Shown: positions 24,025-44,363 of the stretch, piece after piece
Numbering within the stretch: the first letter of the stretch is position 1
Layout of the letters: every line of letters begins with the position of its first letter
Assembly (NCBI GenBank): GCA_027022365.1
Contig: JALVYU010000026.1
Span: forward strand, 64,001 to 128,000
DNA length: 64,000 bases
Source of the DNA: Desulfurococcales archaeon
GTDB taxonomy: Archaea > Thermoproteota > Thermoprotei_A > Sulfolobales > Desulfurococcaceae
Reading direction: 5' to 3'
The notes under the pieces: generated by a model
The model's input: the letters and a program-made list of their open reading frames with translations, nothing else
Database searches by the model: none
What the model was told of the DNA's origin: nothing
Position numbers and translations under genes: made by a program

Positions 24025-24053
24025 CTGTAGATCACTATTTAATATTATAGATA

Positions 24054-24194: not shown

Positions 24195-24196
24195 TG

Positions 24197-24234
24197 TCAC
24201 CTAATTTATTGAAATGTTTCATATTATATATAAA
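24197..24234 (-). promoter_or_regulatory. TATA box (24227-34) and GGTGA RBS (24197-201) of the precursor gene
   Basis: TTTATATA lies 33 nt upstream of the ATG at 24194. Confidence 0.6.
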
Positions 24235-24321
24235 ATTTATTGTTGGTCTTAGTTCAGTGTTATTAAGATAATTTATAAATACCATAATTGAAATATAGAG
24301 AACGAAGTACCAATAATATGG

Positions 24322-25665: not shown

Positions 25666-25669
25666 CAGG

Positions 25670-26851: not shown

Positions 26852-27321
26852 ATATAATTTTTAAATATCTTTGATAATCTAAGCAAATATTTTTTACCAA
26901 GCAGAGTTCTTTAGAAAATCTATAGCAACTATGTTGCTATAAATAACATCGTATTATATCCTTACAGCTTGACTACGAGAACGTATTCCATAATGTGTCG
27001 TTCAAAATTTACAATGGTCACGATGATTATACCGATTATCAATAAAAAATACTAATAATATAGATATTAACTCTCATATGAATTGACTGATTAATCTTAT
27101 CATAACTACGAAGGACATTGATCTAGCCCTATAGTTTGAGCGTATCGAATAGCCTTAGAAGAATAATGGTCCCGGTTAATATATGCATATACTAGAAGTC
27201 CAAGAATTCTATCTACTAAATTTTCTTGTCGCACCGCTTCCCCTCATTAATATTATAGACCTATATAAGCTGTCAAAACTTCTTCTAACAGGGTATTAAA
27301 TAATAATATACGGATTTGCGT

Positions 27322-29175
27322 CTAATAGGAGTGGGTAATTATATCAAGGGCTTTTTCTAGATCTATTTTTCCACCATACATTTGTATCGTTAATAGTAGT
27401 TTCACTGCCCATTCGCCGTGATGATCTCTTATTTGTGTTAAGAGTCTCTTGTCCAGTCCACGCATCGTGCCTGCAGGTGTTCGTGTTCTAATGTATTTCC
27501 ACAGGTCCGGGCTGTAATAGACCATGCCTTTCTCCAGGTCTACGGATATTAGTCCTACTTCTATTAGCTCGTATAGCTTTTTCCAGCCTGGATGTCTGGT
27601 GTAGTCTTCATATTTGGTCTCCTTGTCTAGTACTAGCTTGTTCTTCTTGAGGGCTTTGATGAGCTCTGGTATTATTTTCTTGATGACTATTTCGCCGCAC
27701 TGTATCACGGCCTGCTTGTAGAGGGGCTCGATAACGTTGACTAGGCCGGCTTCCCATAGTTGTCTTAGTTGTTGCTTGAGTCCTGGGCCTAGGCCTCTCC
27801 ACGCGGCCTCAACGATCTTTTCATAATCCTTCTCGGACAAAGTACATACTACTGGCTGCTTATTGAACACCGTCTCCACTAGAACCCGTTTCAGCCCCGC
27901 CTTAACCTCTGCTATCTCCCGGTGTAACTTGGCTATTGAGCCAGCAACATCTACGTGGGCCTGGAAGAGATTCAATAAGTCCTCAACACTCATCTCATTC
28001 TTTCTCCTACGGATCCTCCTCTCAATTCTCAGCGGTCCATCACCGTCGACACCACCCTTTAGGTAGGCAACCAAGTCCCCGGCCGTGAACTGGCCGGCCC
28101 GGAACTGGAGGCTACCCCTCCACAAATCACAGTGCAGGTCGACACGTAGAACAGATAAATCAACAACCCCAACCTCTACACCAAGAACCCCGGAAAGCTC
28201 CCCAACCAAAGCCTCCAGAAACCCCTCAAGCTCCCCGGGACCACTAAAAGACCCAGAAACAATAACCTCACAACCACCACTATATCCACACAAAACCCTA
28301 ACCCTACGACCCAAAACCTCAAACACAAACCCAAGCTTACCACCCATACCACTACCAACAACCCGAAAACCCCTCCTCGACAAACACACAAAACCACAAT
28401 GCCCCGGAACATACAAAACCAAACCATTAACACCACAAGAACCATCCTCACCACTAACACCGCCAAACCCAGCCGCAGGCGGGGCCCCTCCCCCAGCCTC
28501 CCCGATCACATTTTGCCCGGTATCAGAACCCTTGCTGGCGTCGGGGGCTTTACTACTACATATTAATGGTAATAGTGAACAAATCCTATTGGAAACCCTG
28601 TAGAGTCCCCGCTTAATCCTCTCGACATAGCCTGTTCTACGGAGCCTCCACAGATACTTCTTAACAAGATGGGGATCCAGTTTCAGGTAGAAGGCTAGAG
28701 TAGAAGGAGTAAACACCCGGAGCCTAGCTGCAGCCTCCAGGATCCTGCGGGAGACCATGCCTAGGAGACTAGGTCTAGGATGCCTTGAGACACTACTTGA
28801 GACACCCGGACCAGGAGTCACATCAACTCCATGAGACAAAGGACTAGAAGTCACTTCAAGACCATGAGACACCCTAGCAGAAGTCTCTTCACAACATGAG
28901 ACAACTCCATGAGACACCTGGTTGCTGGAGCACTTCTTCCTAGAGACAGGTAATAAGCCAGCAGCTGTCTCATTATAGGCTATATGAGACATTTGATTAG
29001 ACCTAGACCTCTTCGGAACATAGACTCCCAGAGCGATAAGCTTCCTACGAACCCAATCCTTAGAGATATAGAGGTTAAACCTAGAGGAAACCATACGGGC
29101 TATCTTACGGAGACTAAACCCTTGACGGTAGAGCTCTACGGTATACAAGAGAACAGGATCCAGGGACTGGGCCAA
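27322..29175 (-). CDS. multi-HTH protein, candidate replication initiator/relaxase
   Basis: N-terminal HTH, repeat-rich linker, wHTH (LWRLRRTGYVERIKRGLY), RVDLHCD...YLK...LRIE segment and coiled coil. Confidence 0.55.
   Translation of the reverse strand: MAQSLDPVLLYTVELYRQGFSLRKIARMVSSRFNLYISKDWVRRKLIALGVYVPKRSRSNQMSHIAYNETAAGLLPVSRKKCSSNQVSHGVVSCCEETSARVSHGLEVTSSPLSHGVDVTPGPGVSSSVSRHPRPSLLGMVSRRILEAAARLRVFTPSTLAFYLKLDPHLVKKYLWRLRRTGYVERIKRGLYRVSNRICSLLPLICSSKAPDASKGSDTGQNVIGEAGGGAPPAAGFGGVSGEDGSCGVNGLVLYVPGHCGFVCLSRRGFRVVGSGMGGKLGFVFEVLGRRVRVLCGYSGGCEVIVSGSFSGPGELEGFLEALVGELSGVLGVEVGVVDLSVLRVDLHCDLWRGSLQFRAGQFTAGDLVAYLKGGVDGDGPLRIERRIRRRKNEMSVEDLLNLFQAHVDVAGSIAKLHREIAEVKAGLKRVLVETVFNKQPVVCTLSEKDYEKIVEAAWRGLGPGLKQQLRQLWEAGLVNVIEPLYKQAVIQCGEIVIKKIIPELIKALKKNKLVLDKETKYEDYTRHPGWKKLYELIEVGLISVDLEKGMVYYSPDLWKYIRTRTPAGTMRGLDKRLLTQIRDHHGEWAVKLLLTIQMYGGKIDLEKALDIITHSY
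28786..28991. repeat. iteron-like TGAGACA repeat cluster inside the 617-aa gene
   Basis: TGAGACA at 28786, 28798, 28832, 28865, 28897, 28910 and 28985; AGAGACA at 28942; inverted TGTCTCA at 28966. Confidence 0.75.
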
Positions 29176-29418
29176 AGCAATTACCCCTCGTGACGAGAGA
29201 TGACTATGTAGGCGGAATCACTGTATTTCTTCACGAGTCCTAACCAGCGGGTAACTGGTATGTGCCAAGCCTTGATAATACCTCCACGCCTACGTAGCAC
29301 AACAAGAACCAGCACACCGCGGAAAATGATTTTGACTAAACGCCTCCGAATCAATGCCTTAACCCTCAGGAAACACTTGTACGGCTACGTTTTCCGGGCA
29401 ATATTCTCGAGTAAAGTG

Positions 29419-29574
29419 CTAGGCGTAGGCCTTCGCCCTCCTCTTAGCGAGCAGGTATTTCACCAGGTAGGCTTCAGGACCGAGTCTAGAAAGAACCCTC
29501 TCCACGATAGCCGGATCCTCCTTCTGGATCTCCTCAATAAGTCTCCGGGCCTCCTCGAGGGCCCGCTTATTCAT
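29419..29574 (-). CDS. small helical hypothetical protein, 51 aa (MNKRALEEARRLIEEIQKKDP...)
   Basis: Hand-translated; start overlaps the stop of the upstream gene in the same operon. Confidence 0.5.
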   Translation of the reverse strand: MNKRALEEARRLIEEIQKEDPAIVERVLSRLGPEAYLVKYLLAKRRAKAYA

Positions 29575-30190
29575 TCCCCACAGCCTCTTCGAGGAGGGTC
29601 TTATGCTTGTTAATGATGGAGCGGGCTATGCGGAGGAGCCGATTAAACGTTGTTTCGCTGACGAGGGGTTTCAGCCCATCCAAGTCTCTATAGGAGAAAG
29701 TATAGCGGCCTCGGAGAAGCTCGTAGACGATATAGGATAGCAGGTATCTGCCGCGAATACTCCTATTAATAGCCAGAGGCTCGACTTCCCCGAGAACACC
29801 GATGATCCTGTCAAGGACCGGGCGTAGCCCCCTTTTCTCAAACCAGTCGAGAACCTCGATGCTCTTCCGAGAATACACAGTAAGCACAAACCTGCCCTGC
29901 CTAAGCAGCCTCTCCTCATCCACCATGTACCCCCGACTCGTAATAGACCTGGCGAGCCTGAGTAACCTGTAGTGTTTACGGAGCCTATGCTCAAGCCTCC
30001 TAAGCTCCCTATCGGCCCGGTAACCGTAGCGTCTAAGACGTTTACGCTACTCGATCCTAGCCCATTCCCTGGCCTCCTCCCCTACGTGAACCGGGCCGTA
30101 GTCGTAGATCCTGTCGACAACCTCCCCGGTATCCATGCATACTACTTCTCCACGCGTATAATCCCATATGAGCTGTCTACACTCATCCAT
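29567..30190 (-). pseudogene. TFIIB-type Zn-ribbon protein interrupted by one in-frame TAG (30047-49)
   Basis: MDECRQLIWDYTRGEVVCMDTGEVVDRIYDYG; frame continues past the TAG into ORF 29567-29926. Confidence 0.7.
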
Positions 30191-30422
30191 AGCTATCACC
30201 CAGCTCCTCCACGCACTCCTCCAACAGCTCCCTCTCCAGCCTGCACTCCCTATCCCACTCGAGACTGTGGACCCAGCACTCCAGGAGAGAATCAATAAAT
30301 CCCCTGCACCGAGCCCTGACAACACTGTAAGGCAACCCATACCTATCCGCAAGCTCCAAAACAAGATCCTCAACACGATGCACTAACACGGTTAATGGCT
30401 CGATATACATAAAAGAGATCAC
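30183..30422 (-). CDS. small hypothetical protein
   Basis: Translationally coupled between the wHTH gene and the TFIIB-like gene. Confidence 0.55.
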   Translation of the reverse strand: MISFMYIEPLTVLVHRVEDLVLELADRYGLPYSVVRARCRGFIDSLLECWVHSLEWDRECRLERELLEECVEELGDSYG

Positions 30423-30685
30423 CTTGTTGAGCTCTGGGTTACTGTTTGAAGCTCTTTAGTAATTCTGTGAAGAACTTCAAGCCCCTTCTTTGTAATGGAG
30501 TATTTTCCTTTAGAAACTTTAATTACGAATCCATGGATTATCAGCTCCTTGATATTATAATATATTGTTCCGACTGAAAGACCCGTTATTGATAGTAGCT
30601 CACTCAGCGATTTTGGCCCATCGCTTAACGCATATAATATCTTGCCCTGTGAAGATAACATTTTAATTACTTTGACGTCCTGCAT
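30419..30685 (-). CDS. winged-HTH transcription regulator
   Basis: GPKSLSELLSITGLSVGTIYYNIKEL...GKYSITKKG; GAGGT RBS. Confidence 0.82.
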   Translation of the reverse strand: MQDVKVIKMLSSQGKILYALSDGPKSLSELLSITGLSVGTIYYNIKELIIHGFVIKVSKGKYSITKKGLEVLHRITKELQTVTQSSTR

Positions 30686-30711
30686 GTTTCTTACCTCACT
30701 TTTTAAACAGA

Positions 30712-30942
30712 GTGCTTAAGGAACTAGAAAAGAGAGAACACCTGCTGATTTCAGAAGCTATAGCCATAGCGGGCTCAACAGTATTCTATCAGAGATACCT
30801 TCCATATCTCGAAGAAAAAGGATATGTTGTAAGCGAGAAAAAAAGAGAAGGGAGAAGAACAATAAGACTAATCAAGCTCACTGAGAAGGGCAAAAAGCTT
30901 CTCGAGCTCCTTGAGGAAATTAATAAGCTTGACAGGGAGTGA
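30712..30942 (+). CDS. winged-HTH transcription regulator
   Basis: LEEKGYVVSE...LIKLTEKGK wing motif. Confidence 0.75.
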   Translation: MLKELEKREHLLISEAIAIAGSTVFYQRYLPYLEEKGYVVSEKKREGRRTIRLIKLTEKGKKLLELLEEINKLDRE

Positions 30943-30990
30943 GTATAGTGTAGGCTTCGATGAGTTAATGGTAGTGTTCGGGGATATTAG

Positions 30991-31704
30991 GTGCTTATAA
31001 CGGATAGGGAGTTTCTTCGCAAACGGGATAGAGTTGTTCGTGATTTAATGAGATTATTTGATTCTTTAGGTATTGATAAGGGGTTCTTGAATGAACTTTA
31101 TAGTTGTAAGAGGGTTTCAGAGTTCAAGGATTGTTTAACGAAAGTGCTGAATAGTATAGATGCCCGAGGATTGATAGAGGATAGGGATTCATTTGCCAGT
31201 GATCTTAACAAGATTCTTACCAGGATACTGTTGAAGGCTGTCTTCATTAATGATAAATGGATTATATTCTACAGGGGACGTGGAAAAGGTAGCCGTGCCT
31301 ATGGGAGAATACGTATAGTAGTAAGTGTTATAAGTGGGGGTATAGCGGGTTTCTTCTACCTAGGCCTCTTCCTCCTATTTTTAGAGGTATATGATTTTCC
31401 AGGATTCATAAAGTACTGTACGTGGATAGCATTCGCTTACAATTCTTTTTGGACCATAGGCTACTTTATCGGGCTAAGAGAATGGACTACGGGAAAATAT
31501 AGTGTTAAACAATATATTGTAAACACCCTCTATATCCTAGCCCTCAACATTGTATTAGCGATGGTGTTTAGCCTTTTATACAGGGGAAATCCCTCATATC
31601 TCCTATATGCAGTAATATACCTGGGTTTAGCTATACTTCCATTTAAACCTAGACAAGAACGAGGAGAAGCCCCACCACCAATCTTCATACCAATACCTGT
31701 ATAG
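30991..31704 (+). CDS. membrane protein (~4 C-terminal TM helices)
   Basis: Hydrophobic C-terminal half. Confidence 0.65.
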   Translation: MLITDREFLRKRDRVVRDLMRLFDSLGIDKGFLNELYSCKRVSEFKDCLTKVLNSIDARGLIEDRDSFASDLNKILTRILLKAVFINDKWIIFYRGRGKGSRAYGRIRIVVSVISGGIAGFFYLGLFLLFLEVYDFPGFIKYCTWIAFAYNSFWTIGYFIGLREWTTGKYSVKQYIVNTLYILALNIVLAMVFSLLYRGNPSYLLYAVIYLGLAILPFKPRQERGEAPPPIFIPIPV

Positions 31705-31748
31705 CTTCGCTGGCTACCCCGTGGAAAGCTCTTCTACTAGCTTCTCTA

Positions 31749-32564
31749 CTATATTATATTATTGACTATATCTATGAATTTTCTGAAGTCATGGTTTTTC
31801 TCGGTCTCCTGCTTTATTACCGCGAAATAATCGGCAATAGTTTTCACGTTTTTCTGGGAGAGCAGTTTATTTATTCTATTTATGGATTCCAGCACGTTTT
31901 CGGCTGTTAATTCCCGGTTCATAAGGGCTTTGTATATTTCTTGTTTTAGCATTCTCCTTGCGGCTGGATAGACCCTTCTATACATGTTTATGTCAACTGT
32001 GTAGCCGCGTTTTCCTCTATAACCTTTCAGAAACAGTTCTCTCCTTACCAGCTCACTCAGCAACTCCGAGGAGGCATTGACGAGAACATCCACAGATAAC
32101 ATTCTTTCATTAAGCCATTCCTCCACGATCTTTATTACCTGGTCGATTTTGCCGAAGAACTTCTCCCTAACACTCTCGAAGACCTCTTCATAGTAAGGAC
32201 AGGATTCTTCGATAGCACGACATCTATCCATATACATTGAAAACAATGACTCGATATCTCTTCTAACATTGTCCCGATCCATGCCTTTTCTAAGATCATT
32301 CTCTATCCGGTTAAGGATGAAGTGGGCCAGTAAACACTTAGCTCCATGTATCCCGTAGTTCTTTACTATATAGCTGTACATGAGTGGGAACTCGTTCTTC
32401 TTAAACCCGAAATGAACCGGGGCCTTCTCCTCCAAATCCTGGTATGGGAGAACATCTTTAACCCGCGGAGGCTCTTCATCAATAACCCTATCTATAACCC
32501 TACACAGAACATCGTCTAATCCAAGGATCCTATAAACCTTGGAGTGAATCTCCCAGCCCGGCAT
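31749..32564 (-). CDS. MPxWxxH-type hypothetical protein (possible metal-dependent hydrolase)
   Basis: MPGWEIH...ID...H...HFILN; paralog of 39646-40407. Confidence 0.6.
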   Translation of the reverse strand: MPGWEIHSKVYRILGLDDVLCRVIDRVIDEEPPRVKDVLPYQDLEEKAPVHFGFKKNEFPLMYSYIVKNYGIHGAKCLLAHFILNRIENDLRKGMDRDNVRRDIESLFSMYMDRCRAIEESCPYYEEVFESVREKFFGKIDQVIKIVEEWLNERMLSVDVLVNASSELLSELVRRELFLKGYRGKRGYTVDINMYRRVYPAARRMLKQEIYKALMNRELTAENVLESINRINKLLSQKNVKTIADYFAVIKQETEKNHDFRKFIDIVNNII

Positions 32565-32720
32565 AGGATATCAGCCTAATATTAGTTTATGAGGTCTTCT
32601 CCATAAAAAGGGTACATGGAGTATCTTGGAAGATAAGGTACTTGGGGATTATGATATGCCGAAAAACCTGTGGCTTCAGGCGACGGGTGGGCAGGGAACG
32701 CTTTTCTAGCTCTTTCTGGG

Positions 32721-32888
32721 CTACTTGTGTATTCCTAGCCTGGCTATTACTCCGGCTACGTGTTCTTGTTCTAGGGTATCAATTATATCGTCAATGATCT
32801 CAAGTGCTTCATCTATGCTTGGGGCTGTAGCTACCCGGTCTCGGATATACTTTATGATTGCTATGCATTCGGAGCATGGGTTGTTCAC
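32721..32888 (-). CDS. small hypothetical protein, 55 aa (MNNPCSECIAIIKYIRDRV...)
   Basis: Hand-translated; GGAGGTGG RBS upstream of the GTG. Confidence 0.5.
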   Translation of the reverse strand: MNNPCSECIAIIKYIRDRVATAPSIDEALEIIDDIIDTLEQEHVAGVIARLGIHK

Positions 32889-33051
32889 CCGGCTCCCACC
32901 TCCCCCGCGGTTGTTCCCCGCTAGGCTCTCGGTAGCCGTATTTAAAACACTGGGGCACCGGCAAAACTATTTGGGGATGAAAAGGATCTCCTGAGTACTT
33001 CAAGGCTCTGCTTTATAAGGATGAAAGTATTCAATACAGGGGTACAGCGTC

Positions 33052-33675
33052 ATGCTTGTCTATGATAAATCCAGGGCCGAAGTAGTGGATGCGGAGACCG
33101 GCCTAGTGGTTGAGGATAGACTTATTGATCCGGGGCCCGAGTGGAGGAGCTACAGGCCGGAGAGCCGTAGATGCCACATAATGCACCGCCGGGAACCCGA
33201 GGAACTGAGGTTCTTCCGGGGCCTAGTACCCAGATACGTGTATGAGGACGCTGGCCATATTATGAGGAAGCTGAGGCTCGGAGGCCGTGCAGGGGCCCTA
33301 GCAGCCCTTATGTATTCCGCCAAGAGGTACGGCGTACCCCTACCAGCCGAGGTATTCTACTTCATCGATTATGAGAAGAGGAGCGTCTACAGGGTCTATA
33401 GGAGGATCGTGGAGGAGCTGGGGCCGCCCGGTAGGATGGAGGATGCGGCTGTAGCCCAGGTGGCCGGGCTGGCGGTTAGACTCGGCAAACCGCACCTAGC
33501 TCCATTAGTGGTTAAACTATATAGGAGGCTCAGGGAGAGGAACCAAGGCTATAGATCCACTACCCTAGCCGCCGTAGCCCTCGTCAAAGCCGGGCTCCCC
33601 GCCCGGGAAGTCTCCAAGTATCTTGGAGTAGCCCCCTCTACGCTCTCCAAGGCATTGAAACGGGTGGAGGCCTGA
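33052..33675 (+). CDS. divergent, shortened transcription factor B (TFB/TFIIB) homolog
   Basis: YDKSRAEVVDAETGLVVEDRLIDPGPEWRSY (Cys-less ribbon plus B-reader), cyclin-like AALMYSAKRYGVP and TLAAVAL, C-terminal HTH AREVSKYLGVAPSTL. Confidence 0.82.
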   Translation: MLVYDKSRAEVVDAETGLVVEDRLIDPGPEWRSYRPESRRCHIMHRREPEELRFFRGLVPRYVYEDAGHIMRKLRLGGRAGALAALMYSAKRYGVPLPAEVFYFIDYEKRSVYRVYRRIVEELGPPGRMEDAAVAQVAGLAVRLGKPHLAPLVVKLYRRLRERNQGYRSTTLAAVALVKAGLPAREVSKYLGVAPSTLSKALKRVEA

Positions 33676-33679
33676 GACG

Positions 33680-34186
33680 TTGGAGCCCCGCGTAGAAATA
33701 GTAAACATCGTCGCAACGATCAAGCTAGAGCCGATGCCAGATCCTGGAGAAGTACTGGGGAAGATACCGGGCTCCAGGCCAGTTAAGAGGTTCCGGGGAG
33801 CAATGCTGAGGATCGGTAAAACCCCTGTGCTGTTCTACAAGAAGAAAATCATAGTAACCGGGGCGAAGAATACCGAGGAGCTCAGAGACACTATAAGGAA
33901 ACTAGTAAGTGTGCTTCATAGGTACGGTATGGAAGCAAAGCCTAGGGGATACGAGATAGTCAATGTAACTGCTAAGGTGGATTTAGGTAGAAGGATAAAC
34001 CTCGTAGAAGCCGCGGAGAGGCTTGGCGGCATCTATGACCCGGACTACAGGCCATACATGGTGGCAAGGATAAACGATACAGTGATAATGCTATCACACA
34101 ACGGAAAACTAGTAATGCTGGGAGCAAAGTCCATTAAAAAATGCTATATGATTTCCGAACATGTTGTTAACAATATATTTCCGTAA
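33680..34186 (+). CDS. divergent TATA-binding protein homolog
   Basis: Two TBP repeats: IVNIVAT...TGAK and IVNVTA.VDLG..INL...YDP...GKLVMLGAKS. Confidence 0.88.
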   Translation: MEPRVEIVNIVATIKLEPMPDPGEVLGKIPGSRPVKRFRGAMLRIGKTPVLFYKKKIIVTGAKNTEELRDTIRKLVSVLHRYGMEAKPRGYEIVNVTAKVDLGRRINLVEAAERLGGIYDPDYRPYMVARINDTVIMLSHNGKLVMLGAKSIKKCYMISEHVVNNIFP

Positions 34187-34340
34187 TACATTCTAGCCAG
34201 TAATATATTTGAGCCAAAGTGTGCTCTGCATTCTCAGACTAAGCACTGTTGCTGAAAATGTTCTATGAAATATATCCCATAAATTATCCGGAAACAGTAA
34301 CTATAAGTGATAGAATATTACATGATTTATATAGAAAAAG

Positions 34341-34823
34341 ATGGTGATGTTTTTAATGAGCTTCCATATAGTTTTATCTGAGGAGGAGACATTTAATAGA
34401 CTAGTGAAGTATTTTGTAGGAAGGAGATTAAAGATACTATCTCTACATAAACCTTCACACATTAAAGTGGAAATCGGCAAATTGTTCTCACTATGGTTTG
34501 GAGAAGCGTTAGGGGTTGTGGATATCAATATTATGAAGCTGGGCAATCATAGTTTAGTCAATCTATACTTTAACTTTCTTAGGGAATATATCTCCGGATT
34601 AATATTGTCTATACTGCTATCGTTTATTCTCACTATATATGGACTACTCATAGACGCGCCCTGGGATGCTGTACTTCTTTTAGCGATTACTGTATTCGCA
34701 ATAGTTATGCTCCTAGAGGGATACAATGTGGCCGTAACAAGGAAGAAGTTCGTAGAGGAGCTATCTTTATTCGTTCAATCAATAAACTCAAACAAGGTGA
34801 ATATAAATGGCAGGCATGATTGA
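34341..34823 (+). CDS. two-TM membrane protein
   Basis: Hydrophobic hairpin near the C-terminus; overlaps the next gene. Confidence 0.6.
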   Translation: MVMFLMSFHIVLSEEETFNRLVKYFVGRRLKILSLHKPSHIKVEIGKLFSLWFGEALGVVDINIMKLGNHSLVNLYFNFLREYISGLILSILLSFILTIYGLLIDAPWDAVLLLAITVFAIVMLLEGYNVAVTRKKFVEELSLFVQSINSNKVNINGRHD

Positions 34824-35877
34824 TCGTGGAGAAAGAAAAGCTGGGGTACCAGTTGTAGCTCTCATTATTACACTAGTATTCATTGCCTTATTGACTATTC
34901 TTTCACCCAAAGTCGACATCTTTACCACATCATCAACGAATAACACCGGAGGAGCTTCCGCGGACCTTGAAAAGCTTATATTAAGCAAGGTCGACCCGTT
35001 AGCCGTCAGAGAATTCGCCGTTAAACTAACAACTGATCCTCTCAATGCTTTTCCTAATCTATGGAGTAAGTATACTTTAATAGATGAGGAAAGATTCCTC
35101 GAGAAAGGCTATTACTGGTATATAAAGATTAGATTGAGTACGCTCGAAGGAATAAATGGAAGTATAGAGTCAAATACACCAGTAGATTTCTATGTTGTTG
35201 ATGAAGAAGACTTTCTACATTTCAAAGAAGGAGAATCATTCTATTACTACACAAAGCCTTCACGTATAAACATATACAGATCAAGCTTTGAGTGGAATGC
35301 ACCACGTGATGGAACATATTATCTAATAGTATATGCAAAATATGGGAATGCAAGGGTAAAACTAAGAGTCGATACATTCACGAAACCCTTCCTAAGCGGG
35401 TTCCCATATAATATAGAAGACAGAGAAGCATGGTATATATGGATAATAAACGTATGGGTCGCAAAGAACATACACTACATCCCGGATCCAAATTTTGAAC
35501 TAGTACAAGATCCTAAACAAACATTAAGGCTAAGAGCTGGAGACTGTGATGATGTAGCAGTACTAATGGCGTCTATGTATCAAGCAGTAGGGCTAAAAAC
35601 CAAATTCGCAGAAGTAGATACAGATGGAGACGGAAAAATAGACCATATAACAGTCCTAGTGTACTACCATGGAACACCTAAAGAATTCCTAGACAGCGAA
35701 GAAACAATAGCATTCATGGCAGGACTAATATCAAGACTGCCAGATGAATACTCGGTAAGATACATAAAAGGCAATAACGGCATATGGATCATAGCTGACC
35801 CATTATTCTCGGAAAGCAACTACTGTGTAGGAATGATAGAACACGAACCATACAAAATAAAAAATATATTCCCATAA
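34807..35877 (+). CDS. membrane-anchored transglutaminase-like cysteine protease domain protein
   Basis: N-terminal TM; GDCDD, DH and ADP triad residues. Confidence 0.78.
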   Translation: MAGMIDRGERKAGVPVVALIITLVFIALLTILSPKVDIFTTSSTNNTGGASADLEKLILSKVDPLAVREFAVKLTTDPLNAFPNLWSKYTLIDEERFLEKGYYWYIKIRLSTLEGINGSIESNTPVDFYVVDEEDFLHFKEGESFYYYTKPSRINIYRSSFEWNAPRDGTYYLIVYAKYGNARVKLRVDTFTKPFLSGFPYNIEDREAWYIWIINVWVAKNIHYIPDPNFELVQDPKQTLRLRAGDCDDVAVLMASMYQAVGLKTKFAEVDTDGDGKIDHITVLVYYHGTPKEFLDSEETIAFMAGLISRLPDEYSVRYIKGNNGIWIIADPLFSESNYCVGMIEHEPYKIKNIFP

Positions 35878-36238
35878 ATAGCAATGTATGGGCTGGATCC
35901 TCGCGGTTTGATGATGAAGTGTTAATTGGAACGTATTTTAGCGTCGCTTAAATCATATTACACTATATATAATTACATAATGATGTTAATAATTATTATA
36001 TGTTGTTCAGATGCTTAAACAGTTGTTGTAAATTACACTGTACATGGTACTTATACGGTGTCCGGTGCTTTATTCTCGCTTTATTTATCTATACAATTCC
36101 CCATGTAGTTTCGATACACTGGGGAGTACACTCCAGTTTGTACTTGTGTTTATACTCCAGTTTGTACTCTGGGAGCGAGACACGAGTGTATCGGTGTACT
36201 ATGCGGAGCATGTCACTCTACGTTATCAATAAGTAACT

Positions 36239-36532
36239 ATGGACTACGCTGGTGGATTGTTAATGGTGGCTGTATTGAAGGTTGTCCAGTGTATTCTCGG
36301 CTACCTGGCGGAGAAGGAGATAGCGATGCCCATACAGGTGGAGCGTGACCTGAAAATATCGAGGTACCTGGTGTTCGGCTCCCTGATAATCATGGAGGAG
36401 CTCGGCCTCGTCGAAGCGATTGCCAAGAGGGCTAACTGGAAGCTCTACAGGATAACCGATAAAGGCAGAGAATTATTGGAGAAGGGAAAAACAGTTATAG
36501 AGTTGGAGGCTACCGGCCGAGAACCCTCTTAA
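36239..36532 (+). CDS. winged-HTH protein
   Basis: MEELGLVE...KLYRITDKGR. Confidence 0.7.
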   Translation: MDYAGGLLMVAVLKVVQCILGYLAEKEIAMPIQVERDLKISRYLVFGSLIIMEELGLVEAIAKRANWKLYRITDKGRELLEKGKTVIELEATGREPS

Positions 36533-38465
36533 CGGCATCTACAACGTTGTCGGGGATAGCCGCTTCAGCCCCGAAACCCCTAATGTAATCCAGGTATTTT
36601 TCACCCACCACGAACAGTATTCTAGCCCCGCTTTTCCCGGCCCTCTCAATGTATTTCCTTATCTTCCCGGGATCCCTGCTGGGACGGGTCTCCACCTCGA
36701 TGAACAAGACATTACCAGTATCCCATGAATTGGCGTCTCGGTATGGTATGGCGATTACATCTGGGATCTCCCGGAGAGGCTCTTCGCCGGTATCGATCCA
36801 TGTCCATACTCCGAGGTTAAGCCTCAGCTCCTCCACGATCCTCCTGATAGCTTCCTGGTGCTCGGGTCCTCCAGCCCTCTCACCGCTAAACACCATCTCT
36901 ACAAGCCTCCTACCCTTATCCGTAAGTTTGTAGAGCCTAGGCCTCCTACCCCTACCACGGGTTCCTGCCTCATAGACCTCTACAAGGCCGAGCTCAGCCA
37001 GCCCGCGGAAAACGCCATACACAGAACTACCCGATATACCGAAGAACCCGGCAACACGCTTCTCCAAAACCTTAGTAGGCATATCGCCCTCATAGTACAA
37101 CACATACAATACATAAGCCTCTATAGGCCTGACCGGGGGCTCTTTAACCTGGATAGTACCGGGCTCCTCCTTTTCTCCAGCCTCCTCGGCTACTTTAGCT
37201 TCGGCTTTCTCCTCTACCGGGGCCCCGTAGAGTTCCAGGCTCCTTGCTATCCTTTTACTGATCTCCGGGTCATCCTCAAACATAGATCCCTGGACATCAA
37301 CGGGAATATATACTGTATTGAGGGTGAAGGGTCTAACAGGCTTACCGTGGACCTCGGTTTTAACCGCGAACCAGTAGAGAGGCAAATTGATCAAGTCTTT
37401 CTCGGAGAATATAGGCTCGTAGAGCTTGGCCAGTAGCTTAGCCGATTTAAGCCCAACCCTGAACGTTATAAAGGTTCTGCAGTTGCCTAGTATGGCGTCC
37501 AGTATCTCCCGCGGGTACTGCTCGGGATATTGAGTAGCCAGTGTAAGATATAGCTTGTACTTACGGGCCTCGGCAAGAATATCGATAAGGGTTGGAACGG
37601 TGAAGTTGTGGGCCTCGTCGATGTATAGGTAGTGTGGGATCCTCATCCTAGGAGCAACATCGATTCTGGACATGGCCGCCGAGAAAATCTTGCCGATGAT
37701 CAATGTGCCGAGGAAGTGTGAAACCTCTTCGGTGAGCCTACCCTTACTGAGATTAATGACTATGAAAGCCCTCGAATCCATGAGCTTCCTGAAGTCAATA
37801 GTGGACCTTCTAGCAGAGAATATAGGGCGGAGTATCCTGGAGCCAACGAGCTTGCTTATCTTGTTCACAACGCTGATAATAGCGTCTTTTGGTAGGCGGG
37901 GCCATTCCTCCTCCCAGAACTTAGCCACCAGGGGATCCTCGACATTAGCTACGAGCTCGTTTCTCCTATCCTCGTCGACAAGCAGATAGTAGAGATCCAG
38001 GAGACTAGTAGACCCAGGCGGCTGCTCTAGGAGGGTGTTTACACAGTTCCTCAATATATGCTCCAGCCTAGGACCCCAGAAGTCCTTGAAAAGCTTCTGC
38101 AACGCAGAAATAAACGCCTCACCCACACGCTCCCTATCCCATTCATCACGATACTCGAGGAAGTTTATCCTCACGGTCTTGCCGAATACCTTAATCGTTG
38201 TGGGGTCTATGTAGACAAGCCTATCAACTCTATCCTCGGGTATCAGCTTAACGATTTCAAGGGCAAGGTCTCCATGCGGGTCCAGCAGGCTGAATCCCTC
38301 GCCGAGGTCTATGTGTTGCTTGATAAGGAACTTGAGCAACGTCGACTTGCCTGTGCCGGATTTACCGAAAACCGCTATGTGGAGGCGATCCACCTTATAG
38401 ATCCCGTACTTCTTCTCCTTAAAGGATCCAAGGTACACTACCTCGTCTAGACGCTTAAGCTCCAC
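36510..38465 (-). CDS. VirD4/TraG-HerA-like ATPase fused to wHTH and PD-(D/E)xK-like domains
   Basis: GKSGTGKS Walker A, LDPHGD, YIDEAHNF Walker B, EARKY..LATQ; C-terminal PDVI...FIEVET. Confidence 0.85.
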   Translation of the reverse strand: MELKRLDEVVYLGSFKEKKYGIYKVDRLHIAVFGKSGTGKSTLLKFLIKQHIDLGEGFSLLDPHGDLALEIVKLIPEDRVDRLVYIDPTTIKVFGKTVRINFLEYRDEWDRERVGEAFISALQKLFKDFWGPRLEHILRNCVNTLLEQPPGSTSLLDLYYLLVDEDRRNELVANVEDPLVAKFWEEEWPRLPKDAIISVVNKISKLVGSRILRPIFSARRSTIDFRKLMDSRAFIVINLSKGRLTEEVSHFLGTLIIGKIFSAAMSRIDVAPRMRIPHYLYIDEAHNFTVPTLIDILAEARKYKLYLTLATQYPEQYPREILDAILGNCRTFITFRVGLKSAKLLAKLYEPIFSEKDLINLPLYWFAVKTEVHGKPVRPFTLNTVYIPVDVQGSMFEDDPEISKRIARSLELYGAPVEEKAEAKVAEEAGEKEEPGTIQVKEPPVRPIEAYVLYVLYYEGDMPTKVLEKRVAGFFGISGSSVYGVFRGLAELGLVEVYEAGTRGRGRRPRLYKLTDKGRRLVEMVFSGERAGGPEHQEAIRRIVEELRLNLGVWTWIDTGEEPLREIPDVIAIPYRDANSWDTGNVLFIEVETRPSRDPGKIRKYIERAGKSGARILFVVGEKYLDYIRGFGAEAAIPDNVVDAVKRVLGR

Positions 38466-38639
38466 TACCCTCTCACCATCGGGAAAATGATTACGGGAGA
38501 CACGTAGTTGCAGGTTAATGGATAAGTGTGGTGTACCGACCCCTTACAAGCTAGTCATGGAGGCCTCCAAGGGATTACGGGTTAGTATTCTCCCGCAACT
38601 ATGCTTAACCGTTCCACTCTATAACGTGGTGTATGAACC

Positions 38640-39578
38640 GTGTGGTCTTACCTCGAGATAATCCCTCACCCGGAGACCAGGATTGAACCCCTACAATTAG
38701 AGGATTTCATAGCGGCACTTTACGGTACAAGGGCTACCTGGGCATACATTATAGTATATGACGGCGGCCATCTAGGCTTCTACTACATAGTGCCTCGGCA
38801 ACTAACGAATAGTACGGTTAAGAGCCTTGAGTCAAGGTTCAACAAGATCATTATAGAGGAATCCAAGCCCCCTAGATTGATCGATTATAAATATTATACG
38901 GAGCTTAGACTGCTCAAAAGCTTCTACTACCCATTATTCCACCTAACAAGACAGAAAGAGATAGAATCCAACCCCGTAGACGTGATTGCCTCAAGCATGC
39001 TCGGAGGGGAGAGCATGGTATTAATAATAGCTACGCCAGAGCCCCGCGGAGCAGGAGTAATAGCTGGATTCGTCTACGAGAAGAAAACAGGTAAACCAGC
39101 AAGCACTGGGAAAATAATACTAAAAGAAGCCCTAAGCCTAGGAGACGCATTCTTCGGCTCAACAAGCTCTACCACGTCAAAACAACAATACGTGTATAAG
39201 CCCGAGCTAACCGAGGAGGAGAAAAGAATCCTACGTGAAGCCCAGTACAAGATGCACCACCAACTATACGCAACGAGGATAATAGTCCTAGCAAAGGAGG
39301 AAGACCTAGTCTACGATATAGCCAGTAGCTTCAATCAATTCCCATTAAATGGTTTCACCTTTAAAGTAAAAGAGGTGAACGAGAAGATCCTCCGAGAGAT
39401 AAAAGAGCTTAAACCAAGAAGACTGGGCCTGTTATTTAAGGATAAGAAAATACCGGTCCTGAGCCCTAGAGAACTAGCGGCATATGTGAACCTGCCTACG
39501 GCACTGGATACTTTGCCGGTGAAAACTGCTTCAATAATACTTAATCCCCCGCCTGAAATCCCGGAGGAAGCGGATTAA
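38640..39578 (+). CDS. hypothetical protein resembling the N-terminal domain of large T4CP-like ATPases
   Basis: Ends VLSPRELAAYVNLP...PPPEIP; divergent from the ATPase. Confidence 0.55.
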   Translation: MWSYLEIIPHPETRIEPLQLEDFIAALYGTRATWAYIIVYDGGHLGFYYIVPRQLTNSTVKSLESRFNKIIIEESKPPRLIDYKYYTELRLLKSFYYPLFHLTRQKEIESNPVDVIASSMLGGESMVLIIATPEPRGAGVIAGFVYEKKTGKPASTGKIILKEALSLGDAFFGSTSSTTSKQQYVYKPELTEEEKRILREAQYKMHHQLYATRIIVLAKEEDLVYDIASSFNQFPLNGFTFKVKEVNEKILREIKELKPRRLGLLFKDKKIPVLSPRELAAYVNLPTALDTLPVKTASIILNPPPEIPEEAD

Positions 39579-39645
39579 GCATTACATGCTCTTTCACTTG
39601 GCTTATTAGTGAATAGCATTACATTGATTTATCTAGGGGTATAGG

Positions 39646-40407
39646 TTGCCGGATTGGAATACTCATGTTAAATGGGCTAGTAGGCTCGGCATAGATAGGG
39701 AGATTGCAGAGTTTATCAATAAATTGATTGATGACCCTGAGGAAGTATTGAAGGATGACCCTACAGAGCTGGGTGAACTGTATAGGAGGGATCCGGAGGG
39801 CGTTAAAGCCGCCCTAATAGGACATGATTGGGGTAGGAAGGGTAAGGCTAGGCTTGACATTTTGAAGACTTACTGCCGTATACGGTTTGGGGAGAAGGGA
39901 GTAATGGCTACCGAACTACACCATGTCCTCGACTATTTAACACATATAAGAAGCCCGGAGAACCTGGCCAGAATAATTGTTAGCTCATCAATATTTCACG
40001 CGACAAGCGGTAAACCATTAAGCGAGAGGATGAAACTCGTAAAAGAATTCTACTGGAATAGAAGAAAATATTCTGAATCTCTGGAAAGGCTTACGGAAGA
40101 AATAGCGAAGCTGGACTATGAATCCTATAAGAACATAATAATCGAGCTCCTAAAGAATAAGGCACAAGAATGGGAGTTGCACAGAGAAGTCTATGACTTT
40201 GTGATCAATAACCTAGACGAGATACTGAAGGACATCGACAAGTATCTTGCAAAGAAAAGAAAACGAATAGCACGCTCACTATCGATTAACACACTAGACA
40301 AATGGACTGAAAAATTAACCGCTCTTCTCATAGGTATTATACAAGTCCTTATCCCAGTGTCTCTCGAACTGATAGCTCTCGTATCTTGTCCGTATTATTC
40401 GTGGTAG
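39646..40407 (+). CDS. MPxWxxH-type putative metal-dependent hydrolase
   Basis: MPDWNTH...ID...HDWG...HHVLD; 3' end overlaps the convergent gene by 93 nt. Confidence 0.6.
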   Translation: MPDWNTHVKWASRLGIDREIAEFINKLIDDPEEVLKDDPTELGELYRRDPEGVKAALIGHDWGRKGKARLDILKTYCRIRFGEKGVMATELHHVLDYLTHIRSPENLARIIVSSSIFHATSGKPLSERMKLVKEFYWNRRKYSESLERLTEEIAKLDYESYKNIIIELLKNKAQEWELHREVYDFVINNLDEILKDIDKYLAKKRKRIARSLSINTLDKWTEKLTALLIGIIQVLIPVSLELIALVSCPYYSW

Positions 40408-41532: not shown

Positions 41533-41583
41533 AAAGAAACAGCTTGGAGAAAGGATATAGTAACAGAACGGTAAAAAACCGTG

Positions 41584-41991: not shown

Positions 41992-41994
41992 GGC

Positions 41995-42519: not shown

Positions 42520-42524
42520 GATAC

Positions 42525-44358: not shown

Positions 44359-44363
44359 TAAAT

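Follow-up and report, generated by a model that had tools for sequence, protein, structure and literature searches.

What might a TFB and a TBP gene that lie side by side among transfer-type genes do, and do they belong to a mobile element or to its host? This question is raised by a 64,000-nucleotide stretch of DNA from a Desulfurococcales archaeon (hereafter the window). According to its ORF list, two adjacent co-oriented genes on the forward strand, one for a compact TFB homologue of 207 aa with an ATG start (33052–33675) and one for a divergent TBP of 168 aa with a TTG start (33680–34186), are separated by a 4-nt gap (33676–33679), as a preliminary description of this DNA had claimed. An SD-like sequence, GGTGGAGG, lies inside the 3′ end of the tfb-like gene, ahead of the tbp-like ORF. 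A 616-aa protein neighbouring the pair has a weak Atlas resemblance to DUF7845 clusters (0.81), which is a lead only.

The two genes have a promoter of their own. A canonical TATA box, TTTATAAG (33012–33019, forward strand), precedes the start codon of the tfb-like gene by 33–40 nt. It is of the TTTATAA type, and a TATA-type box occupies the equivalent position in five other loci (L037, L035, L010, L036, and L038). Divergent from the pair is a conserved 55-aa ORF with a CxxC motif (32721–32888, reverse strand), which has no Pfam match and has a 53–76% identical counterpart at the equivalent place in five distinct other loci (L010, L035, L036, L037, and L038). Between the two divergent TATA boxes there is a conserved intergenic box, GCAAAACTATTTG (32961–32973, forward strand), with relatives, GCRWAACTRTT, in L010, L035, L036, and L038; this box is possibly an operator.

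The 207-aa protein is a true TFB homologue. When aligned with 12 cellular TFBs by hhalign it matched at 99.7% (E = 2.6e-25, residues 2–206 against 25–302 of 323). The alignment covers both cyclin repeats, in line with the compressed repeats described before; in a library search, cellular TFBs matched the query from residue 58 or 59 to 204, and the Pfam TFIIB cyclin model (PF00382) was not detected in the protein at E ≤ 1. Residues 2–40 correspond to the TFIIB ribbon plus PEWR segment (NCBIfam, 6.5e-10; PDB 1pft, 1.4e-7), with IDPGPEWRSY aligned to IDxGPEWRAF. Few parts of the family are as well conserved as the first 40 residues, in which I25, D26, E30, and W31 are invariant. At the C-terminus, HTH_23 (residues 172–205) was found above the Pfam cut-off and aligns to the TFB HTH by hhalign; the recognition helix reads PSTLSKALK, compared with TEVTVRNRYK in cellular TFBs. 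The PEWR segment and the C-terminal HTH, both pointed out in the preliminary description, are therefore borne out. In the AF2 model (pLDDT 74) there are 5 + 4 helices, the linker region is reduced to one short helix at residues 50–55, and pLDDT is below 50 at residues 23–34 and 43–47. All 21 Foldseek hits of this model at E ≤ 1e-3 are TFIIB, TFB, or Brf chains, with TM scores of only 0.29–0.36.

Other parts of a TFB are missing. The protein begins within the ribbon and thereby lacks its first knuckle; residues 1–40 are Cys-free and the sole Cys is C41, and the Pfam model Zn_Ribbon_TF gives 23.2 bits against a cut-off of 29, instead of the four-Cys N-terminal Zn ribbon. The loss of the ribbon Cys had been noted before, and none is present in residues 1–40, but the loss is less aberrant in this lineage than had been implied, because the ribbon of the host TFB1 itself has only two of the four Cys. 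After PEWR, about 55 residues are missing where the B-reader loop and B-linker lie, with the hhalign gaps falling between query residues 41 and 60.

The 168-aa protein is a true two-repeat TBP homologue. The Pfam TBP model (PF00352) matched it in two stretches (E = 1.1e-18, 67.3 bits against a cut-off of 22.9), and NCBIfam TBP models matched at E-values down to 2.5e-21, the best at 76 bits, which is far below their cut-offs of 181–347. In the AF2 model (pLDDT 93.3) the order S1-H1-S2-S5-H2 occurs twice, forming a saddle of two tandem repeats. By Foldseek it aligned with the Sulfolobus TBP 1mp9 (TM 0.90, rmsd 1.9 Å), and 44 of the 44 top hits were TBPs.

Two pairs of DNA-intercalating Phe, one per repeat, are an established feature of TBPs. 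In the window protein only the repeat 1 pair is present. Alignments to the host TBP and 1mp9 show that repeat 1 is canonical and retains both Phe (F38 and F52), while in repeat 2 YDPDYRPY...IMLS stands in place of the host's YEPEQFPG...LLIF, and Phe is thereby replaced by R124 and by S139; the substitutions YDPDYRPY and IMLSH, and the presence of both repeats, had been read correctly from the start. All 15 rows of the TBP-like family have YDPD-RPY and R124, the position of S139 is Ser or Thr across the family, F38, F52, and N95 are also invariant, and N9 is nearly so (at least 90% of rows). N9 and N95 are the central minor-groove Asn of S1, kept in both repeats, and they align to the NIVA motifs of the host TBP. 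The acidic residues of the stirrup are altered only conservatively (YEPE to YDPD). A complex prediction for the TBP-like protein and residues 48–207 of the TFB-like protein, run without controls, scored 0.01 and bears neither way.

Identity between the TBP-like protein and the host TBP is 31–34%. The host TBP was matched in all 61 genomes of the phylum at E ≤ 1e-10, and in 59 of them the best match was 46–86% identical to it, the other two being partial matches (G370, 37%; G398, 49%). In a phylogeny against cellular TBPs, which the preliminary description had proposed as a check, the TBP-like family came out as one clade, distinct from 30 cellular TBPs taken from the phylum (SH-aLRT 100; a branch of length 4.2). 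The family is not orthologous to cellular TBPs and forms a long-branch group of its own.

Elsewhere in its genome the host encodes a canonical TBP and two full TFBs. The pair is thus extra to the host set, as had been implied; with the host set complete and the clade separate, the two genes are neither the host's only copies nor its orthologous ones. Among 351 genomes of the class, the full-length TFB-like family was found in three and the TBP-like family in the same three. Adjacency was counted over loci whose sequence runs past the TFB-like stop, and the two genes are adjacent in four of the four other distinct loci (L037, L009, L010, and L036). dN/dS was 0.10–0.18 for the TFB-like gene (five of six pairs computable) and 0.15–0.26 for the TBP-like gene (5 of 10 pairs computable), values of about 0.1–0.26 that do not indicate relaxed selection. 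These results support a conserved linked pair under purifying selection. The TFB-like frame of L009 has an internal TAA, and the stated coverage of that contig is 1.4×. The pair in L036 is flanked by different genes, and no ATPase homologue was found within the 11 kb examined. No relative of either protein was found in IMG/VR viral contigs, and the phage collection and Thermoproteota plasmids gave no TBP-like match. The TBP-like protein matched 14 plasmid records, all haloarchaeal, at 25–33% identity. The N-terminal 39 residues of the TFB-like protein matched annotated TFBs of six distinct Sulfolobales viruses at 43–56% identity (12 records, each virus being under two accessions), and the same residues also matched phrog_20431.

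The pair is part of a conserved 14.5-kb module (29419–43813) that is collinear with the 30-kb metagenome contig L037, with 52–97% amino acid identity in gene-by-gene BLASTP. T4SS-type transfer genes are present in this module, namely a pilin, an ATPase, and a membrane protein with 8 hydrophobic segments. The pilin, of TrbC/VirB2 type, has 110 aa and two hydrophobic segments by hydropathy (43481–43813, forward strand), and both T4SS_pilin (PF18895, E = 6.6e-11) and TrbC (PF04956, E = 1.7e-9) are above their Pfam cut-offs. The T4SS coupling-type or HerA-like ATPase has a C-terminal PadR wHTH (36510–38465, reverse strand; DUF87, 1e-9; TrwB_AAD_bind, 4.3e-7; TraG-D_C). It is 84% identical in L037, and by tblastn it matches annotated T4SS coupling proteins, including one of a Sulfolobus islandicus plasmid. 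The polytopic membrane protein (40315–41532, reverse strand), with about 8 hydrophobic segments in a hydropathy scan, is 65% identical in L037 and has no Pfam match; it is a candidate VirB6/CedA-like channel. A conserved 312-aa protein with one hydrophobic segment (38640–39578, forward strand) is 81% identical in L037 and has no Pfam or PHROG match, and a conserved protein of 174 aa whose hydrophobic segment is N-terminal (41995–42519, reverse strand) is 97% identical in L037 and 89% in G122. The YdjM-like membrane hydrolase (42525–43100, forward strand; Pfam YdjM, E = 6.4e-15) probably starts about 27 codons downstream, judging from the tblastn alignment with G122, which begins at residue 27.

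Regulators are numerous in the same region. An ArsR/HTH_5-like wHTH gene (30419–30685, reverse strand; Pfam HTH_5, E = 6.1e-7) and a second wHTH gene divergent from it (30712–30942, forward strand; Pfam HTH_45, E = 1.2e-5) are both conserved in L010 and L037. An EarA/PadR-like wHTH protein assigned by Pfam (36239–36532, forward strand) is conserved in L009, L010, and L037, and a MarR-like wHTH of 75 aa (43211–43438, forward strand; Pfam MarR_2, E = 3.8e-5, below the cut-off) in L037 and G122. A second gene derived from TFB (29567–30190, reverse strand) has just the ribbon-like N-terminus and is TFB-like over residues 5–44 alone (hhalign, 91.7%). It is broken by an in-frame TAG at 30047–30049; its L037 counterpart is an intact 214-aa ORF (tblastn, 61% identity in one frame).

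A short directional motif, the GYAACTAT box, recurs ahead of genes of this module. As GCAACTAC (38504–38511, reverse strand) it precedes the ATPase gene, with 37 nt between the 9-mer and the start codon, and AACCTGCAACTA at this promoter is retained in L037 amid diverging flanks. As GCAACTAT it occurs 36 nt before the 312-aa gene at 38640 (38595–38602, forward strand) and 38 nt before the MarR-like gene (43164–43171, forward strand), where 14 invariant columns, GTTGAAGCAACTAT, are shared by three elements and the flanks have diverged. As GTAACTAT it occurs 37 nt before the pilin gene (43435–43442, forward strand), 36 nt upstream of an ORF at 34341 (34297–34304, forward strand), and upstream of the 174-aa gene (42537–42544, reverse strand), with a 27-nt block conserved in three elements. 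An inverted GTAACTAT (42561–42568, forward strand) points at the YdjM-like gene, and the box is also found upstream of the YdjM homologue of G122. The orientation is always with the gene. The box is 36–38 nt ahead of the ATPase, 312-aa, MarR-like, and pilin starts, each of which has an SD-like GGTG at −9 to −14, and this geometry equals that of the TATA box in the tfb-tbp operon. In L037 and in G122, a more distant element, the orthologous sites retain the box while their flanks diverge.

Counts agree with this arrangement, and they are post hoc because the motif was first noticed in the same genes: the genome as a whole has 103 copies of [GC][CT]AACTA[TC]G (0.059 per kb), of which six fall in 29–44 kb of the window (0.40 per kb); an ORF of at least 60 aa starts 28–47 nt past the box in 6/6 cases there versus 11/97 elsewhere; and, where genes were called automatically, a box beginning between −52 and −38 was present in 3 of 21 genes of the module versus 3 of 1727 others (Fisher p = 2.9e-5), which makes it almost absent from host genes at this position. 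An unbiased 7-mer enrichment in the intergenic DNA of the module did not single out the box (best p = 1e-4 among 1559 words; TGCAACT ranked 13th with two copies), a scan of low power because the automatic gene calls swallowed several intergenic sites. One GTAACTATG (36233–36241) overlaps the start codon of the EarA/PadR-like wHTH gene and fits ill with a promoter role. The ATG within GYAACTATG was considered as a start codon, which holds only for this gene at 36239; elsewhere it is absent in orthologues (ACG, ATA, AAG) or opens just seven codons.

The best explanation, to which we give an even chance, is that the pair encodes alternative initiation factors of an integrated plasmid-like element in this Desulfurococcales-related archaeon, serving its transfer genes. 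Host TBP and TFB would drive the tfb-tbp operon through the ordinary TATA box in front of it, a promoter that is seen and whose use by the host factors is presumed. The compact TFB and the asymmetric TBP would then assemble at promoters in which the directional GYAACTAT(G) box replaces TATA. Repeat 1 of the TBP, with both Phe wedges kept, might take the T/A-like 3′ half (CTAT), and the Phe-less repeat 2 with its invariant Arg might read the G/C-containing 5′ half beside the HTH of the TFB-like protein. Host RNAP may be recruited through the half ribbon together with the conserved PEWR segment, and since the B-linker is missing, promoter opening may need the host TFE. The pilin, ATPase, membrane channel, and accessory genes would thereby be switched on. 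Such a pair would be an archaeal counterpart of phage or plasmid sigma factors, controlled upstream by the many wHTH repressors of the element. A tentative and rather doubtful extension is an orthogonal code, in which the Phe/Arg-asymmetric TBP and the Zn-free mini-TFB read the TATA-less box and load host RNAP on pilus and transfer genes, while the RNAP-dock contact that is missing may come in trans from the second, ribbon-only TFB fragment.

Against activation stands what the TFB-like protein has lost, namely the first knuckle, all Zn ligands, and the approximately 55 residues of the B-reader loop and B-linker. RNAP recruitment and DNA opening are the tasks of these parts, and an inactive or inhibitory TFB would be expected to lack them. 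The pair might be a repressor or decoy, whose complex with DNA could not recruit RNAP or open the promoter; it would hold the transfer promoters silent until relief comes, or shut off the host as a dominant negative by occupying host promoters or titrating host partners. Retention of the DNA-binding core and the TBP saddle fits this, and archaeal viruses do encode RNAP repressors, as in the account of ATV ORF145/RIP (PMC5123050). However, the N-terminal 40 residues are highly conserved, suggesting that they still contact something, most simply RNAP, and the host TFB1 also lacks half of its Zn ligands. A global inhibitor has no need for a private TBP whose DNA-reading repeat is altered, and the pair would then lie upstream of genes needing permanent silencing by it, in synteny that is conserved. 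We therefore regard repression as unlikely.

A dedicated partnership is not the only way in which two such initiation factors could work. Each protein might pair with a host factor, the TBP-like one with TFB1 or TFB2 and the TFB-like one with the host TBP, and widen the repertoire, and the GYAACTAT box might be a wHTH operator. Multiple TBP/TFB combinations are the established model in haloarchaea, where they are thought to define promoter classes (as set out in PMC2121645 and PMC3261711), and there too extra TBP and TFB genes occur, some on megaplasmids. The haloarchaeal plasmid TBPs differ in being annotated as ordinary and in lying on large non-mobilizable replicons, a comparison made by annotation and identity alone. 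The merely conservative stirrup change, YEPE to YDPD, is compatible with a host partner, and the box could be bound by any one of the element's five or more wHTH proteins. Nevertheless, the strict co-occurrence in 3 of 351 genomes and the operon arrangement in every assessable locus argue for a dedicated TBP–TFB partnership. As for an operator, the MarR-like and pilin genes each have a single, directional copy of the box, and inverted boxes vary in spacing (16 nt, about 10 nt, and about 85 nt), so that divergent promoters fit better than a dimer operator. Host partners and a wHTH operator thus make a quite improbable explanation.

The claim that the pair is carried by a mobile element is supported by its location in a strain-specific island of about 30 kb (approximately 13425–43900) with T4SS-like transfer genes. 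The same-genus genomes G123 and G126 (92–94% identity) match the window from 1 to 13424, where the match breaks off; it is taken up again at 43922 for G126 and at 47128 for G123. A tyrosine integrase of 382 aa (13475–14623, forward strand; Pfam Phage_integrase, E = 1e-22) lies at the left edge of this insertion, and L009, from another genus, has a 54% identical integrase, in pieces, 1–2 kb upstream of its pair. The att search found no direct repeat of at least 25 nt, and none of at least 18 nt except a tRNA-Leu paralogue; the two island edges share only 9 nt, and no partial copy of the tRNA at 47138–47292 was present. Contigs of four DNA runs on 27000–46500, which were fragmentary, held no circular joint. 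In some DNA runs, segments 34136–35904 and 41505–44100 are replaced by other sequence, and other metagenomes have variable cargo cassettes. No relaxase, VirB4, or replication gene was identified on the element. Without these genes and att sites, the autonomy of the element is only putative. Of the preliminary interpretation as a whole, the extra copies, the strain-specific transfer island, the conserved and selected linked pair, and the separate TBP clade hold, and the activity and orthogonality are putative.

Could the locus instead be a variable but domesticated chromosomal exchange locus of Ced/Ted type, with the pair as a cellular regulator in the role of TFB3? TFB3 is a chromosomal factor that retains the Zn ribbon, has no core for binding DNA and TBP, and acts together with TFB1 and TBP. 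Like the window protein, it is a non-canonical paralogue of TFB with a link to DNA-exchange genes, in its case through co-regulation of Ced, Ups, and HerA (PMC9905601, PMC6101594, and PMC6101591, as far as these accounts go). The architecture is the reverse, however, because in the window protein the core is kept and the ribbon degraded; the TFB3 comparison drawn earlier is only an analogy. It is the ribbon-only gene at 29567–30190 whose architecture resembles TFB3. Ced is reported to be domesticated on chromosomes of hyperthermophilic Thermoproteota and to be co-regulated with Ups and HerA by TFB3 (PMC9905601), and the missing att repeat, replication gene, and circular joint are in keeping with domestication. 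Speaking against it, window positions 20001–40000 are unmatched in four of five same-genus genomes, including some at 92–94% DNA identity, the integrase is at the island edge and a related one beside the pair in another genus, only 3 of 351 genomes have the pair, and cargo cassettes vary in other metagenomes. Domestication is therefore very unlikely. Finally, TBP-fold replication initiators have recently been described in archaeal viruses and plasmids (in the portion of PMC13107129 concerned), and the 616-aa neighbour has its Atlas resemblance to DUF7845 clusters, but it is highly improbable that the 168-aa protein is an enzyme, for example a rolling-circle replication initiator of the Rep_trans or Rep-Arvir kind, given its Pfam TBP match (1.1e-18), end-to-end alignment with cellular TBPs, retained saddle Asn and repeat 1 Phe pair, and 44 of 44 best structural matches to TBPs, on which a Rep-Arvir/DUF7845 identity was rejected, and given that the DUF7845 model PF25227 matches nothing in the genome at E ≤ 1.

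Sigma factors of phages and plasmids are private promoter-recognition subunits that redirect the host polymerase to element genes, and element-encoded initiation factors would act likewise, although the proteins are unrelated to a TBP/TFB pair. The metazoan TBP relative TRF2/TLF has lost its intercalating Phe and serves TATA-less promoters; TRF2 lacks Phe in both repeats, whereas the window protein lacks them only in repeat 2. A similar logic is seen in eukaryotic viruses, where a divergent TBP or a TBP–TFIIB-like heterodimer (poxviral VITF-3 and KSHV ORF24 being examples of such factors) reads the virus's own non-canonical promoters, as outlined in PMC12917281 and PMC12529657. This is an analogy of logic with no sequence-level relation, and the poxviral factor uses a viral RNAP.

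Closer relatives are the TFB-derived, element-borne proteins of archaea. Such proteins are encoded by mobile elements (PMC6563490; preprint 10.1101/2021.07.29.453957) that include thaumarchaeal ICEs, with VirB4, VirD4, and VirB6 genes as neighbours, Asgard mobile elements and viruses, and Sulfolobales rod-shaped viruses. The known ones have a Zn finger and one or more cyclin domains (as described in PMC4858521), whereas the window protein has no Zn ligands. The main accounts in PMC6563490, 10.1101/2021.07.29.453957, and PMC4858521, gene tables in the supplements aside, make no mention of a TBP, whereas here the TFB-like gene is always TBP-linked. In the literature on archaeal mobile elements we found no report of a linked TBP–TFB operon, and the supplementary gene tables could include TBPs.

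According to one review (PMC5569661), the general view is that archaeal viruses and plasmids depend on the host TBP and TFB, and only TFB homologues had been noted on archaeal mobile elements in the accounts cited (PMC6563490; 10.1101/2021.07.29.453957). Beltran et al., in the passage concerned, describe archaeal conjugative plasmids as having no recognisable pilins; in contrast to that statement, a VirB2-type pilin is present here on a putatively mobile Thermoproteota element. The locus would offer a natural minimal TFB with neither Zn ribbon nor B-linker, and a natural experiment on how TBP asymmetry relates to promoter orientation and sequence choice. The pair may also provide an orthogonal expression switch for hyperthermophiles. 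If the proposed reading is true, archaeal mobile elements can bring a whole promoter-recognition module, consisting of a TBP–TFB operon and a distinct box at the TATA position, and this would be the first archaeal sigma-factor-like takeover module built of TBP and TFB.

The two genes lie on the plus strand with a spacer of 4 nt, a TFB-like open reading frame of 207 aa with an ATG start (33052..33675) followed by a TBP-like one of 168 aa with a TTG start (33680..34186), and the ORF listing agreed with the positions and spacing of the preliminary description. An SD-like GGTGGAGG is within the 3' end of the TFB-like gene. The 168-aa protein is a true TBP. It matched the Pfam TBP model in two stretches (E 1.1e-18) and the Sulfolobus acidocaldarius TBP 1mp9 in a PDB profile search (7.7e-23). 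Its AF2 model (pLDDT 93.3) superposed on 1mp9 with a TM of 0.90 and 1.9 A, and all of the best 44 structural matches were TBPs. The protein is 31% identical to host TBP in the alignment. Both Phe are present in repeat 1 (F38 and F52), while in repeat 2 the host YEPEQFPG...LLIF has become YDPDYRPY...IMLS, with R124 and S139 occupying the places of both Phe. Across 15 aligned family members, these features vary little or not at all. Thus, the two-repeat TBP with an altered second repeat, proposed earlier from the sequence, was confirmed by Pfam, the alignment to host TBP, and the AF2 model.

In family libraries, the TFB match of the TFB-like protein was confined to residues 2-40, plus a C-terminal HTH (HTH_23). 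Compared profile to profile with 12 cellular TFBs, it aligned end to end (99.7%, E 2.6e-25), with small deletions in both cyclin repeats and no counterpart of about 55 template residues after PEWR. The AF2 model (pLDDT 74) had three short N-terminal strands and core helices 5+4, and all 21 structural matches at E <= 1e-3 were TFIIB, TFB, or Brf chains. The PEWR motif and C-terminal HTH of the preliminary description were found again by the profile-profile alignment and HTH_23, and the deletions agree with its compressed cyclin repeats. Its further claim of missing Zn-ribbon Cys also held: the N-terminus begins within the ribbon and no Cys precedes residue 41. Such loss is less aberrant than had been suggested, since host TFB1 (C26:586723-587667, locus L005) itself lacks two of the four ribbon Cys (SxxC...CxxT). 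The set is complete in host TFB2.

One canonical TBP and two full-length TFBs are encoded elsewhere in the 1.74-Mb genome, and thus the pair does not represent the host's only copies. Database searches found 16 homologues of the TBP-like protein (48-78% identity; 17 matches including the window's own, from 115 candidates) and 14 of the TFB-like protein (62-91% identity, 3553 candidates), with five contigs of matching size in both lists. Fragments were left out of the TBP-like (A1: P0014, P0017) and TFB-like (A2: P0030, P0031) family alignments. An exhaustive library search with the TFB-like profile gave 136 proteins at E <= 1e-3, and the two clusters at E <= 1e-30 were the family itself and a Cys-less 217-aa cousin. 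The other matches were mostly cellular TFBs of about 300 aa, aligned at 2-40 and/or 58-204; the few that remained were short fragments, plus longer proteins aligned over the C-terminal part only. Full-length TFB-like genes were present in three of 351 class genomes at E <= 1e-115 (G000, G122 of the same genus, and G171 of another genus), and the TBP-like family was found in the same three. After these three, the best TFB-like match in the 351 genomes came from G341, a remnant of 75 aa that contains a TGA.

The two genes are adjacent in all four other distinct loci that reach past the TFB-like stop (L037, L009, L010, and L036), a count that leaves out L034, L035, and L038, which end too early. 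The TFB-like frame of L009 has an internal TAA, and its contig title gives 1.4x coverage. Relaxed selection was not seen: by the Nei-Gojobori method, dN/dS was 0.10-0.18 in five of six TFB-like gene pairs and 0.15-0.26 in five of ten TBP-like gene pairs, the remaining pairs being saturated, or 0.10-0.26 over both, and these values are rough because dS was at least 0.77 in every pair. A TBP tree was built from 15 family rows plus 30 cellular TBPs of the phylum; it has no outgroup and is open to long-branch effects. In it, a branch of length 4.2 (SH-aLRT 100) sets the family apart from all of the cellular TBPs. Taken together, the pair is rare, additional to the host set, linked, and under selection. 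Besides its full pair, G122 has a partial second TBP-like copy (G122:C17:1662-1967, L042; residues 65-166, a 108-aa open frame) about 2 kb away.

The pair is in an island. The match to G123 and G126, two close relatives with 92-94% DNA identity, runs from window position 1 and ends at 13424, and synteny restarts at 43922 in G126 and, in inverted order, at 47128 in G123. Window positions 20001-40000 had no match in four of five same-genus genomes, and the fifth, G122, has its own copy of the pair (71-74% DNA identity). Positions 47128-60000 match contig C5 of G123 inverted, about 120-130 kb away from the left-flank match, and this rearrangement breakpoint coincides with the island. Rfam identified a 155-nt, apparently intron-containing tRNA at 47138-47292 on the minus strand that ARAGORN missed. 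It is a candidate integration target because it is 10 nt from the G123 synteny restart; no partial copy of it was found elsewhere.

A tyrosine integrase (13475-14623) is at the start of the island, followed by a serine recombinase (15885-16496, minus strand; Resolvase, E 3.4e-32) and by a partial second tyrosine integrase (19540-19881, minus strand), and the island is probably composite. In L009, an integrase in pieces, 54% identical to that of the window, is just upstream of the pair. A low-GC block of the island (20761-26851, GC 0.28-0.34) encodes an MFS transporter, a BpsA_C-like protein, and three radical-SAM enzymes, of which one has SPASM; these genes may form a small cargo for biosynthesis.

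The region 29419-43813 is collinear gene by gene with the 30-kb metagenome contig L037. This module contains several wHTH regulators, the pair, a variable cassette, small membrane-anchored proteins, a membrane protein of 8 segments, a YdjM-like hydrolase, and a TrbC/VirB2-type pilin (the pilin above Pfam cut-offs). Its 651-aa ATPase has DUF87, TrwB, and TraG-D_C domains and matches annotated T4SS coupling proteins, one of them on a Sulfolobus islandicus plasmid. Several metagenome runs on hydrothermal vents, from two studies or more, yielded contigs with module DNA. In contigs from other vent runs, about 1 kb of other sequence replaces 34136-35904, with the membrane ORF and the transglutaminase-like gene, and 41505-44100, which spans part of the transfer module; these segments look like variable cassettes. 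The description as an integrated plasmid-like transfer element is well supported. Its autonomy is more tentative: no att repeats were found at the island, no circular joint in contigs of metagenome runs, and no relaxase or replication gene in the element.

A second TFB-derived gene in the module (29567-30190, minus strand) has a ribbon-like N-terminus only, in which each knuckle has one Cys as in host TFB1, and then a basic helical region, an architecture that recalls TFB3. It is broken by a GAG-to-TAG change at 30047-30049, and the L037 copy is intact (214-aa ORF). A spore-photoproduct-lyase-like radical-SAM gene is directly after the pair in L036 (1594-2652) and near it in L037 (6587-7654). 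By analogy with TFB3, Ced, and Ups in Sulfolobales, there are hints that the pair might be linked to DNA damage. Outside the window, the genome of the window has a second, remnant locus (C26:261000-268500) with paralogues of three window genes (29%, 60%, and 89% identical), of which only the first belongs to the conserved module. GYAACTATG boxes occur four times in this locus, in two cases just upstream of an ORF, and it has no TBP-like or TFB-like gene.

The TFB-like gene has a canonical TTTATAAG at -40 to -33 and an SD-like GGGGT at -14, and five other loci have a TATA-type box in the corresponding position. The transfer genes have G(C/T)AACTA(T/C)G in place of the TATA box, always oriented with the gene. 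Its distance to the start codon is 36-38 nt in the ATPase, 312-aa, MarR-like, and pilin genes, each with GGTG at -9 to -14, and thus, for an SD-led transcript, the box is where a TATA box would be expected. More copies precede the genes of the 174-aa and YdjM-like proteins and the ORF at 34341, and one overlaps the start codon of a wHTH gene at 36239. Orthologous sites in L037 and in the element of G122, which is more distant, keep the box while the intergenic flanks have diverged. Upstream of the MarR-like gene, the invariant blocks of three elements are the 14 columns GTTGAAGCAACTAT and the SD; upstream of the 174-aa gene, a 27-nt block is common.

Genome-wide there are 103 occurrences of the 9-mer pattern (0.059 per kb), of which six are in 29-44 kb. 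In post hoc comparisons, an ORF of at least 60 aa began 28-47 nt after it in 6/6 cases in 29-44 kb versus 11/97 elsewhere, and a box started at -52 to -38 in 3/21 module genes versus 3/1727 others (p 2.9e-5, automatic gene calls). The box did not stand out in an unbiased 7-mer scan of module intergenic DNA. A further sequence, GCAAAACTATTTG (32961-32973), is flanked by the divergent TATA boxes of a 55-aa ORF and the pair, with related versions in four other loci and a resemblance to the AACTAT core of the transfer-gene box; it may be an operator or feedback site.

Alternative basal-factor paralogues and TFBs on mobile elements are already known. TFB homologues have been reported on thaumarchaeal ICEs (PMC6563490), in Asgard mobile elements and viruses and crenarchaeal rod-shaped viruses (10.1101/2021.07.29.453957), and near type IV pilus loci (PMC4858521); TBP is not mentioned in any of these texts. 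Database matches of the TFB-like protein also point to the rod-shaped virus TFBs. Plasmid records show extra TBPs on haloarchaeal megaplasmids, and according to a 2017 review, archaeal viruses probably rely on the TBP and TFB of the host (PMC5569661). Searches of the open literature, supplements aside, gave no account of TBP and TFB genes linked in an operon on a mobile element of Thermoproteota.

The pair might be a non-productive decoy or repressor, for which the missing ribbon knuckle and B-linker of the TFB-like protein speak. Alternatively, its members might mix with host partners and a wHTH protein might bind the box, or the region might be a domesticated Ced-like locus instead of a mobile element. 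A TBP-fold replication enzyme was rejected from the structural matches, all to TBPs, and because the Pfam DUF7845/Rep-Arvir model had no match anywhere in the genome. A 616-aa protein (27322-29175, minus strand; wHTH at 142-193), not conserved in L037, has a weak language-model likeness (0.81) to DUF7845/Rep-Arvir clusters.

The best-supported reading is a two-step cascade in which the pair reads the GYAACTAT promoters, with every binding step inferred by us. In the TBP-TFB-DNA complex, the C-terminal TBP repeat is on the upstream half of the box, adjoining TFB. We take 1d3u and 1ais to represent this established geometry, and both were among the matches of the TBP-like PDB profile search and the TFB-like structural search. 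The C-terminal repeat of the TBP-like protein, which has lost the Phe wedge and gained an invariant Arg, would then face GYAA, the non-TATA half, and thus its anatomy fits the cascade. The recognition helix of the TFB-like protein, unlike that of cellular TFBs in the profile-profile alignment, also fits. Host factors would first make the pair from a normal promoter, and the pair would then read the GYAACTAT promoters and bring host RNAP to the transfer genes.
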